Below are positions 1,488 to 4,003 of a DNA stretch of 4,346 nucleotides, in pieces; positions within the stretch are counted from its first letter, which is position 1, and each line of letters starts with the position of its first letter. Position numbers and translations under genes: made by a program. Origin of the DNA: a virus (lineage: Duplodnaviria > Heunggongvirae > Uroviricota > Caudoviricetes); IMG/VR virus record IMGVR_UViG_2711768005_000011; one strand, written 5' to 3'. The notes beneath the pieces were generated by a model, which saw nothing but the letters and a program-made list of their open reading frames with translations, did no database searches and was not told the origin of the DNA.

Positions 1488-1786
1488 TTATACCTGCGAT
1501 ACGTTATACCATGTTCCGTTAATTAACTTTTGTATTGGTCTGAATACTGCCGGATCATCACCATCGACTTCACCGATAATACCAAGCCCCGTGATTACAT
1601 GGCCTGATTTTTCATACATCACGCCTTTCTTCATGGTCTAAACAACTCGTGTGCCAAGTCTGACATCTCTCACATAGCGGGAATCAAAGTTACCGTAATC
1701 CGAGGGATTAACACGTCCCGTAATATTTATGGTTTTATTACTTTGAATGCTTCCGGAGACAAAGCGCATAACATGGACGTTATTAG
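1488..1786 (-). pseudogene. Side tail-fibre alternative cassette, C-terminal portion (downstream of the IS5 insertion), with an in-frame amber codon
   Basis: Same frame as the fibre segment on the other side of IS5 once IS5 and one TTAG copy are removed. Reads NNVHVMRFVSGSIQSNKTINITGRVNPSDYGNFDSRYVRDVRLGTRVV, then TAG (1640..1638), then [49 protein letters not shown], then TAA at 1490..1488. The conserved C-terminal motif lies beyond the amber codon. Confidence 0.7.
1783..1786. repeat. IS5 target-site duplication, left copy (TTAG)
   Basis: TTAG immediately left of the IS5 inverted repeat; identical TTAG at 2983..2986. IS5 is known to make 4-bp duplications at YTAR-type targets. Confidence 0.85.
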
Positions 1787-2982
1787 GGAAGGTGCGAACA
1801 AGTTCCTGATATGAGATCATCATATTCATCCGGAGCGCATCCCAGAGGGACATCATGAGCCATCAACTCACCTTCGCCGATAGTGAATTCAGCACTAAGC
1901 GCCGTCAGACCCGAAAAGAGATTTTCCTCTCCCGCATGGAGCAGATTCTGCCATGGCAGAATATGACCGCTGTCATCGAGCCGTTTTATCCCAAGGCGGG
2001 CAATGGCCGACGGCCCTATCCGCTGGAGACCATGCTGCGTATTCACTGCATGCAGCATTGGTACAACCTGAGCGACGGTGCCATGGAAGATGCCCTGTAC
2101 GAAATCGCCTCCATGCGCCTGTTTGCCCGATTATCCCTGGATAGCGCCCTGCCGGATCGCACCACCATCATGAATTTCCGCCACCTGCTCGAGCAGCATC
2201 AACTGGCCCGTCAATTGTTCAAGACCATCAATCGCTGGCTGGCCGAAGCAGGCGTCATGATGACCCAGGGCACTTTGGTGGATGCCACCATCATTGAGGC
2301 ACCCAGCTCTACCAAGAACAAAGAGCAGCAACGCGATCCGGAGATGCATCAGACCAAGAAAGGCAATCAGTGGCACTTTGGCATGAAGGCCCACATTGGT
2401 GTCGATGCCAAGAGTGGCCTGACCCACAGCCTGGTCACCACCGCGGCCAACGAGCATGACCTCAATCAGCTGGGTAATCTGCTTCATGGAGAGGAGCAAT
2501 TTGTCTCAGCCGATGCCGGCTACCAAGGAGCGCCACAGCGCGAGGAGCTGGCCGAGGTGGATGTGGACTGGCTGATCGCCGAGCGCCCCGGCAAGGTAAA
2601 AACCTTGAAGCAGAATCCGCGCAAGAACAAAACGGCCATCAACATCGAATACATGAAAGCCAGCATCCGTGCCAGGGTGGAGCACCCGTTTCGCATCATC
2701 AAGCGGCAGTTCGGCTTCGTGAAAGCCAGATACAAGGGGCTGCTGAAAAACGATAACCAACTGGCGATGTTATTCACCCTGGCCAACCTGTTTCGGGTGG
2801 ACCAAATGATACGTCAGTGGGAGAGATCTCAGTAAAAACCGGAAATAACGCCAGAAATGGTGGAAAAAATAGCCTAAATAGGCTGATTCGATGTGTTTAC
2901 GGGAAAAAAATCGGCCCAGATCCGCGAAATTTTAATCAGCGAGTCAGCTTGGGAAGAAATGACCTGCTTATTCGCACCTTCC
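1787..2982 (+). mobile_element. IS5 insertion sequence, complete copy (~1.2 kb)
   Basis: Terminal inverted repeats GGAAGGTGCGAACAAG (1787..1802) and CTTATTCGCACCTTCC (2967..2982, 15/16 match as reverse complement). Flanked by TTAG direct repeats. Encodes a 326-aa InsH-type transposase. Confidence 0.9.
1855..2835 (+). CDS. insH: IS5 transposase InsH (DDE transposase, IS5 family), intact, 326 aa
   Basis: Track [39 protein letters not shown] ... [14 protein letters not shown] is near-identical over its full length to the E. coli IS5 transposase as I recall it. It lies inside an element with IS5 inverted repeats. Confidence 0.95.
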
Positions 2983-2986
2983 TTAG
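2983..2986. repeat. IS5 target-site duplication, right copy (TTAG)
   Basis: TTAG immediately right of the IS5 right inverted repeat; matches 1783..1786. Confidence 0.85.
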
Positions 2987-3614
2987 CATAAACATCCAGA
3001 TTACCATCGCCTTTTTGTTTAAAGCCCGTGTCATTATCACCCAATACAATCGAATTACCGCCAAGAGCACTGGATGTTCCGATACCCAGTGCACCATTCA
3101 GTTGACCACCAGATAACGGCAGTGCACCAACATCTCCTGCTGAAGGTTTTCTGGTGGTGTAAAATTCGGACCAGTCGGCTTCAAAACCATAACCATCACG
3201 GGCTGAACGATAAAAAATACCGCCATTTTTATAATTAATCCGAAACTGAGCTGCAGGACAACTTCCTTCTCCCATATAAAAATGAATAATTAACGTTGAT
3301 GCACCACTAATAGTTGCGTTATAGGCTCCGCTACTCCAGTTCCATCCAACTGCTTTATCATTCGCAACGGTGCTTCCTGTTTTCCCTAAGGCAAACGCAC
3401 CAACATGACTTGCTTTTAATGTGATATCGGAGGAACCATCAAAAGCCACATTGCTTATTTTCCTGGCAGTTTTTAATTTTGCAGCTGTAGAAGCATTGCC
3501 GGATAGTTCACCAGAAAGGCCACCGCTGAATGTTTGTCGATTAGTCCAGGTATTCGCTGTACTGAGTAACGGTATTTTCTCCCCGCTTGTGCCGAGTTCT
3601 CGTAAACCGAGGTT
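2983..3614 (-). pseudogene. Side tail-fibre alternative cassette, N-terminal portion of the variable region (from the crossover site to the IS5 junction)
   Basis: Minus-strand frame opens inside the crossover site (in-frame TAA at 3617..3615) and reads NLGLRELGTSGEKIPLLSTANTWTNRQTFSGG ... FDGSSDITLKAS ... GDGNLDVYA up to the IS5 junction. Track ORF 2874..3449 is the lower part of this frame; its last ~37 codons are IS5 sequence. It resembles lambdoid side tail-fibre (Stf) C-terminal regions as I recall them. Confidence 0.75.
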
Positions 3615-3622
3615 TTAGATAA
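3597..3622. other. Gin/Pin/Cin/Hin-family recombination crossover site (gix/pix-like), right boundary of the invertible segment
   Basis: TTCTCGTAAACC GA GGTTTTAGATAA is a 26-bp imperfect palindrome with the AAACC-NN-GGTTT core characteristic of serine-invertase crossover sites. It lies ~55 bp upstream of the invertase start, and the minus-strand fibre cassette frame begins in its inner half. Confidence 0.8.
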
Positions 3623-3676
3623 TGGCGGTTTCTGGCCTGCATGGCATGATTTGTGCTTTTGGACGGGAGATTCAGC

Positions 3677-3916
3677 GTGCTGATTGGCTATGTAAGGGTA
3701 TCAACAAATGACCAGAATACAGACCTGCAACGAAACGCTCTTGTTTGTGCAGGATATGAACAAATATTTGAAGATAAATTAAGCGGAACAAGGACAGGCC
3801 GACCTGGATTAAAACGTGCTTTAAAGCGCCTTCAAAAAGGTGACGCACTGGTTGTCTGAAAACTGGACTGACTGGGGCACTGTATGCGGCATCTTGTCGT
3901 GCTGGTGGTGGAAGCC
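3677..3916 (+). pseudogene. pin: Serine DNA invertase (Pin/Gin/Cin/Hin family), N-terminal ~60 codons intact then disrupted by stops
   Basis: GTG at 3677 with GGGAGA at 3663..3668. Reads VLIGYVRVSTNDQNTDLQRNALVCAGYEQIFEDKLSGTRTGRPGLKRALKRLQKGDALVV, a recognisable invertase N-terminus with the catalytic-Ser region. Then TGA at 3857..3859 where W is expected, KLD, TGA at 3869..3871 where R is expected, and LGHCMRHLVVLV. A full-length invertase would be ~190 aa. The ATG at 3653 used by the ORF track has no SD and is probably not the start. Confidence 0.8.
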
Positions 3917-4003
3917 TAGAAAAAGTATCGGGTGTTGCTGAACCGTGTTGATACATCAACTGCACCTGATATTGAGTGGCCTACGAACCCTGTCAGGGAG
4001 TAA
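3917..4003 (+). pseudogene. Remnant of the 3' end of a tail-fibre assembly (tfa) gene, in frame with the invertase fragment
   Basis: Same frame as the pin fragment reads EA, TAG (3917..3919), then KKYRVLLNRVDTSTAPDIEWPTNPVRE and TAA (4001..4003). This parallels the C-terminus of the intact Tfa in this window ([25 protein letters not shown]), with the conserved Trp codon replaced by TAG. Confidence 0.5.

Follow-up and report, generated by a model that had tools for sequence, protein, structure and literature searches.

The stretch of DNA analysed here (4,346 bp, taken in full and called the window) is the reverse complement of the whole draft contig CWVK01000234.1 of assembly GCA_001256455.1. 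Its host lineage is Shigella sonnei-like and carries many insertion sequences, and the window is very probably what decay has left of an invertible side-tail-fibre region, part of a lambdoid prophage in an S. sonnei-type genome, a judgement that stands together with the account of its decay developed below. Two reading frames of this region are broken, an invertase/tfa fusion and a tail-fibre cassette, and they contain four premature stops. An earlier note, made from the letters alone, had read all four as sitting at conserved codons, each one transition away from the codon expected there.

The first frame opens with a GTG codon at 3677 on the forward strand and holds the 5' end, about 77 codons, of a Gin/Pin-type gene for a serine DNA invertase (3677-3908). 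When the frame was repaired, it matched the Pfam Resolvase profile (PF00239) over positions 2-91 of 145 (E = 6.9e-22), and the active-site serine motif YVRVSTNDQ is present, which identifies the catalytic N-terminal resolvase domain. On the 3' side of this match, the same repaired frame was found to align with positions 104-130 of the 131 in Caudo_TAP, that is, the last 27. A complete serine invertase has about 185-200 aa and a C-terminal helix-turn-helix (HTH) domain, but here tfa replaces the invertase from about codon 77, and no HTH family was matched by the repaired frame in the Pfam search. The stump is a remnant and not a functional member of the serine DNA invertases, as the C-terminal ~60% of the protein, including the DNA-binding domain, is missing whatever the stops.

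The in-frame deletion junction between the two genes is located at 3906-3908 (forward strand), where a three-way codon alignment with O157 pinE and the tfa gene of phage PhiR26_1 reveals a TGG microhomology; phage matches to the tfa part also start at 3906. The frame continues with the final ~31 codons of a tfa gene of lambdoid type (3909-4003, forward strand, with its TAA at 4001-4003), 98.4% identical to PhiR26_1 tfa. This fragment is not a full-length member of Caudo_TAP since only the C-terminal end of the profile is covered. The invertase stump is itself a mosaic. It is gin-like up to about position 3865, with ~94% identity to Mu gin in an alignment of 212 nt, and pinE-like beyond, where it is closest to O157-type pinE.

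The second frame is a tail-fibre variable cassette, Sv-B, on the reverse strand. Its N-terminal shared part (2983-3596, Pfam gp37_C) and its C-terminal part (1488-1786) are separated by IS5, an insertion sequence of 1,196 bp (1787-2982, forward strand). IS5 was identified by its DDE transposase gene (1855-2835, Pfam DDE_Tnp_1 and DUF772), its terminal inverted repeats (GGAAGGTGCGAACAAG and CTTATTCGCACCTTCC) and a 4-bp target duplication, TTAG, read in the sequence at 1783-1786 and 2983-2986. The presence of a complete IS5 inside a short-read contig suggests that this element is single-copy or rare in that genome. After removal of IS5 the shared part joins 1786-1488, and 945 nt of the rebuilt frame could be aligned to the intact fibre gene of Escherichia coli NCTC86 at 98.5% identity, with 6 transitions and 5 transversions. 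We also noticed a 3-bp in-frame indel near 3150 in the shared part, which reads EFYTTRKPS here and EFYTTTRKPS in NCTC86 (about position 2010 of locus L001). The cassette borders on a 26-bp inversion crossover site of the gix/pix type, TTCTCGTAAACCGAGGTTTTAGATAA (3597-3622), and a TAA found just 5' of the cassette lies within this site, outside the coding part of the silent cassette. No further in-frame stops were found to interrupt the invertase/tfa or fibre frames.

All four stops are present as noted. Three of them, TGA at 3857-3859, TGA at 3869-3871 and TAG at 3917-3919, lie on the forward strand in the frame that starts from GTG 3677, and the fourth, TAG at 1640-1638, lies on the reverse strand in the fibre frame. 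The ancestral codons had been inferred in the earlier note from family conservation; when sister alleles and intact orthologues were aligned codon by codon, TGG, CGA, TGG and CAG could all be observed. Each change was confirmed to be G-to-A or C-to-T, and all four are GC-to-AT transitions. The first TGA replaces the Trp of VVWKLDRLGR by a G-to-A change. TGG occupies this position in the fused loci of enterotoxigenic E. coli (ETEC; L003 and L004) and of XH993 (L013), and also in the six intact invertases that were compared (Mu Gin, PhiR68_1, Tongde, a P2-like Pin, K-12 PinE and O157 PinE).

The second TGA replaces the first Arg of KLDRLGR by a C-to-T change. The intact O157:H7 pinE gene (L010) reads GAC CGA CTG GGG at this point, and the window is identical to it save for that C-to-T. 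Elsewhere the codon is CGC in Mu-gin-like genes (GAT CGC CTC) and CGG in K-12 pinE (GAT CGG CTG). Mu gin, the P2-like pin and K-12 pinE were considered as the closest reference for this codon and set aside because their flanking codons differ, O157 pinE being exact. CGA is thus taken as the most parsimonious ancestor at this position and not as the codon of the whole family.

The TAG at 3917 replaces the Trp of LLEAWKKY by a G-to-A change, and TGG was observed in the ETEC, XH993 and OZ040035 (L016) alleles. The lambdoid phages PhiR26_1 and SPF_0923, whose tfa genes are intact and ~98% identical, have TGG here as well. The TAG at 1638 replaces Gln by a C-to-T change on the coding strand. CAG is found in its place in the intact fibre genes of NCTC86 (L001, 98.0% identity), OZ040035 (98.4%) and KC-Dl-1 (L017, 93.8%). 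Among the alleles and orthologues aligned, none of the four stops is shared with a functional gene. The description of these codons as conserved holds across families for the two Trp and the Arg, while the Gln is conserved only among close orthologues.

The relatives of the window place these lesions in sequence. Ten S. sonnei-type loci (L018-L027), mostly from complete, independent chromosomes, were found through the exact Tfa protein of 952-1485, and they are 99.9-100% identical to the window on both flanks of IS5. One of them, CP026802.1, is S. sonnei ATCC 29930 (PMC9430107). When the whole window was compared with 5,426 complete E. coli genomes, none gave a coverage of at least 80%. The nearest E. 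coli relatives are prophages of NCTC86, EC958 and OZ040035, with 99.3-99.4% identity over 2983-4346; we take these three to be phylogroup B2 strains.

The fusion itself is carried by ~538 E. coli genomes, and in various strains it was located by trp/ompW, by potB or inside the Rac region near trkG and pinR. Its occurrence at differing chromosomal sites indicates that the remnant moves with lambdoid prophages or via recombination between them. In the RefSeq records of NCTC86 and EC958 both fragments of this locus, invertase and tfa, are flagged as incomplete pseudogenes, and for the ETEC strains the tfa piece is flagged in this way too; some records retain the truncated invertase open reading frame (ORF) as an ordinary coding sequence. 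The amino acid replacements D-to-G (3798), T-to-A (3845), R-to-H (3879) and S-to-C (3881) are common to all fusion alleles. A further replacement, C-to-Y at 3756, was observed in the B2 and S. sonnei alleles only.

The lesions were found to be nested in their distribution, in the order of the fusion with TGA-3869, then TGA-3857, TAG-3917, TAG-1638 and IS5. Both the fusion and TGA-3869 are present in every allele examined (ETEC, XH993, B2 E. coli and S. sonnei), and a stop-free fusion query gave no exact match among the ~538 fusion-bearing E. coli genomes, the best match having one mismatch. TGA-3869 is the oldest stop, and it co-occurs with the deletion in every allele, so that either of these two events may have come first. 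OZ040035, NCTC86, EC958 and the S. sonnei loci have TGA-3857 in addition, and all of these except OZ040035 also have TAG-3917. When the GTDB species representatives were scanned with a degenerate pattern that covers all three stops of the invertase/tfa frame, no match was obtained.

The fibre stop TAG-1638 was observed in all ten of the S. sonnei-type loci, whereas every E. coli orthologue examined lacks it. In ATCC 29930, for example, the TAG-bearing cassette is joined to a fibre gene that is otherwise full-length and is split as 875 aa plus a 48-aa tail ORF. This stop is older than the insertion of IS5, which is private to the contig. The ten near-identical loci have no IS5 at this point, and the fibre/IS5 junction is absent from all 5,426 complete E. 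coli genomes. An ORF that reads from the fibre cassette through into IS5 is encoded by one contig only in the assembly collection, and the exact protein of the ORF that reads out of IS5 into the fibre cassette (1638-1856) is not on record.

From the nested distribution it follows that the four stops are independent events that took place at separate times. The stops in the invertase frame are probably secondary to the deletion fusion, which TGA-3857 and TAG-3917 clearly postdate, and the fibre stop is accompanied by IS5; the stops would therefore be signs of neutral decay and not the events by which the genes were inactivated. Three of the four stops are older than S. sonnei and were carried along with the lambdoid prophage. 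The nesting of the stops allows the decay of a prophage remnant, found in S. sonnei and several E. coli lineages at differing sites, to be dated in relative terms.

The transition-only pattern was then weighed against what the genetic code permits. No single transversion can turn TGG, CAG or CGA into a stop, so that being one transition away is dictated by the code. This calls for caution, as transition-only stops are largely forced once the ancestors are Trp, Gln and CGA-Arg, and the real question is why the stops arose at Trp, Gln and CGA codons rather than at Lys, Glu, Leu, Ser, Tyr, Cys or Gly codons. In the repaired frames there are 34 single-base transition routes to a stop, all of them GC-to-AT, and 124 transversion routes. 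With the mutation bias gauged from ratios counted locally and from several values of kappa, the probability that all four stops are transitions is 0.002 for no bias, 0.03 for a kappa of 2.6, 0.075 for a kappa of 4 and 0.15 for a kappa of 6. Using local rates, we estimate this probability at roughly 0.03-0.16, which is not robustly unusual and is, moreover, a post hoc figure.

The local rates come from the 324-nt remnant (3677-4000), which differs from its composite ancestor by 10 substitutions; 8 are transitions, and 6 of these 8 are GC-to-AT. The substitutions that do not produce stops comprise 5 transitions and 2 transversions, and, counted per available path, non-stop GC-to-AT changes outnumber transversions about sixfold in the remnant. 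These counts favour a strong transition bias that is seen at non-stop sites too. In each of the bacterial lineages studied under relaxed selection, G/C-to-A/T transitions have been described as predominating over other mutations (PMC2936535).

We hold with high confidence that the best explanation of the four stops is neutral decay by spontaneous GC-to-AT transitions in defunct prophage genes. An illegitimate deletion would have taken the dimerization and DNA-binding parts of the invertase and joined what was left, up to codon ~77, in frame to the terminal codons of a lambdoid tfa gene. The remnant would then have evolved without constraint, and Sv-B likewise as part of a defective prophage, until four independent GC-to-AT transitions struck TGG, CGA, TGG and CAG and turned them into stops. 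This class of change, more frequent in bacteria than any other kind of point mutation, is mostly attributed to cytosine deamination, and one of the four events occurred at a Dcm CCWGG site. The genetic code and the mutation bias together account for the transition-only pattern, with no need for a special process. The finding is correct but ordinary and holds nothing new in kind.

The stop that lies at a Dcm site is TAG-3917, where CCTGG (3915-3919) has become CCTAG. The position of G3918 is opposite the inner C of the complementary CCAGG, the target of methylation by Dcm. As the ancestral G at 3918 gives CCTGG, TAG-3917 would be the expected product of deamination of 5-methylcytosine at this site, in the manner of the E. 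coli Dcm hot spots, where C-to-T likewise falls on the inner cytosine. Coulondre et al. are said to have described amber hot spots of this kind at Dcm sites in lacI in 1978. The locus can serve as a textbook natural example of a nonsense mutation at a Dcm site. Unlike in the hot-spot system, the other three stops lie in ordinary sequence contexts; CCWGG is absent at 3859, 3869 and 1640, and only one of the four stops fits the Dcm context. Dcm CCWGG sites are recognised hot spots of deamination (PMC10710837).

Several points weigh against this account. The CGA ancestor comes from one pinE-like segment with only ~89% identity over 75 nt. A kappa of about 2-2.6 would give a nominal probability of 0.016-0.03 for four transitions out of four. 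Moreover, 3 of the remnant's 10 substitutions created stops, for which the nominal P is ~0.01 if six GC-to-AT changes are assumed, each with an 8% chance of producing a stop. Both nominal figures are post hoc, as the region was picked for its stops, and the excess of stops in the remnant is probably due to chance together with ascertainment bias. Finally, neutrality, and deamination as the chemical cause, are what we infer and not what was measured.

The same excess would be expected if the stops had been selected, for example because a truncated invertase-Tfa fusion, with a catalytic half and no DNA-binding domain, was harmful and poisoned resident invertases. The fixation of TGA-3869 in every fusion allele examined also agrees with such selection. 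However, TGA-3857 trims just four residues off a product of 64 residues that was already terminated, TAG-3917 is located 3' of both older stops and is not translated, and TAG-1638 belongs to another gene. Only TGA-3869 could have been selected, and the statistic is affected by ascertainment bias as noted above; we therefore regard selection of the stops as quite improbable.

A local or episodic hypermutation, either by strand-biased deamination linked to transcription or replication or during a transient mutator phase deficient in mismatch repair, is harder still to reconcile with the alleles. Four of the six GC-to-AT changes in the remnant are G-to-A on the forward strand within 163 nt (3756, 3859, 3879 and 3918), and the one change specific to the window, at 4104, is a GC-to-AT transition as well. 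However, the four stops are of different ages and lie on different branches, which excludes a single burst, and the events are far too few for a test of strand bias. In addition, the proportion of transitions to transversions between the fibre cassette and NCTC86 is not mutator-like. It is just as difficult to believe that the excess of stops in the remnant is something other than chance, be it selection against a dominant-negative fragment or a strand-specific deamination zone produced by convergent transcription of the methyltransferase gene. That the genes are really intact, the stops being recoded or read through or else products of faulty sequencing or assembly of a short draft contig, of which the window is the entire length, is refuted in practice, since all four stops recur in the ten independent S. 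sonnei-type loci and three of them in many finished E. coli genomes, the invertase has lost its C-terminal part irrespective of the stops, and we know of no stop-codon reassignment in Escherichia/Shigella.

Neutral decay through GC-to-AT transitions has a counterpart in the GC-to-AT-biased decay of clonal pathogens, including Shigella, to which the four of four stops and the 6 of 10 substitutions in the remnant are similar. Such decay under relaxed selection was described by Hershberg and Petrov in 2010 (PMC2936535) and by Balbi et al. in 2009, cited there. The locus differs from Shigella genome reduction in that three of its four stops predate S. sonnei and are common to E. coli B2 prophage alleles. 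These three stops are thus part of the history of the phage gene pool and not of Shigella reduction as such. The dead invertase stump and the broken fibre cassette support the treatment of these ORFs as pseudogenes, with little import past annotation.

The locus as a whole works like the type of invertible tail-fibre switch represented by the Mu G segment with gin and the e14 P segment with pin, from which it descends. As in the Mu G segment/gin and the e14 P segment/pinE, two opposed fibre cassettes are found, each with its own tfa gene, and a 26-bp crossover site of the kind expected next to a serine invertase lies beside the invertase gene. Unlike in those systems, the invertase in cis is a stump of ~77 codons continued by a tfa 3' end, with three stops in the joint frame, and in the contig one cassette is split by IS5 while the other is cut by an IS3-family element.

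Site-specific inversion is nevertheless indicated by a fibre segment of 2,950 bp that lies one way round in some S. sonnei chromosomes and the other way round in others (L019 versus L026, 6060-9009 in each). The ends of the inversion have 25-bp overlaps on both sides with the half-sites swapped (TTCTCG versus TTCCTG), and the crossover site at 3597-3622 is the exact end point. As the invertase beside the segment is dead, any inversion would have to be the work of one supplied in trans.

The remaining features of the window flank these two frames. At its left end (1-105, reverse strand) lies the end part of an IS3-family element, putatively IS600-like, with the OrfA start MSRKTQRYSKEFKA reading from 66. 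This element cuts short the upstream fibre gene. Positions 1-105 recur with 100% identity elsewhere in the S. sonnei loci, beside HTH_Tnp_1/rve transposase genes, whereas in loci that do not have the element the match to the window begins at 106. The insertion is missing from L019 and L025-L027, and the fibre gene has 918 aa in L019 and 361 aa in L025. In addition to truncating the cassette Sv-A, the element probably removed the left crossover site. The C-terminal remnant of Sv-A (106-394, forward strand, with TAA at 392-394) is continuous with the intact 918-aa fibre gene of L019 and gave no match in the Pfam search.

Both tail-fibre assembly genes between the cassettes are intact. They are tfa-A (396-923, forward strand; Pfam Caudo_TAP E = 7.9e-37) and tfa-B (952-1485, reverse strand; E = 4.8e-34), and both match the full Caudo_TAP profile (PF02413), which makes them genuine members of the family. 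The exact tfa-B protein occurs in 4,765 blocks of the assembly collection.

At the right end, the 3' part of a gene for a YbcY-like class I S-adenosylmethionine-dependent methyltransferase (4058-4346, reverse strand) ends with the contig; the assignment is taken from RefSeq, which annotates such a gene at the corresponding place of L001 and L002. The gene order stf-tfa-ybcY was also found in phage PhiR26_1. Beyond the window, 3' of the methyltransferase gene, L001 carries a DUF4376 pseudogene (6060-6329) with an internal TGA (DGIY*RQRE). This TGA was considered as a fifth data point and rejected, as the intact relatives are just 73-74% identical and have CAG or CGC at this position, which makes the ancestor ambiguous. 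Within the methyltransferase gene lies the sole point difference between the contig and all ten S. sonnei-type loci, where T in the window replaces C at 4104 and changes AGG to AAG (Arg to Lys) on the reverse strand.

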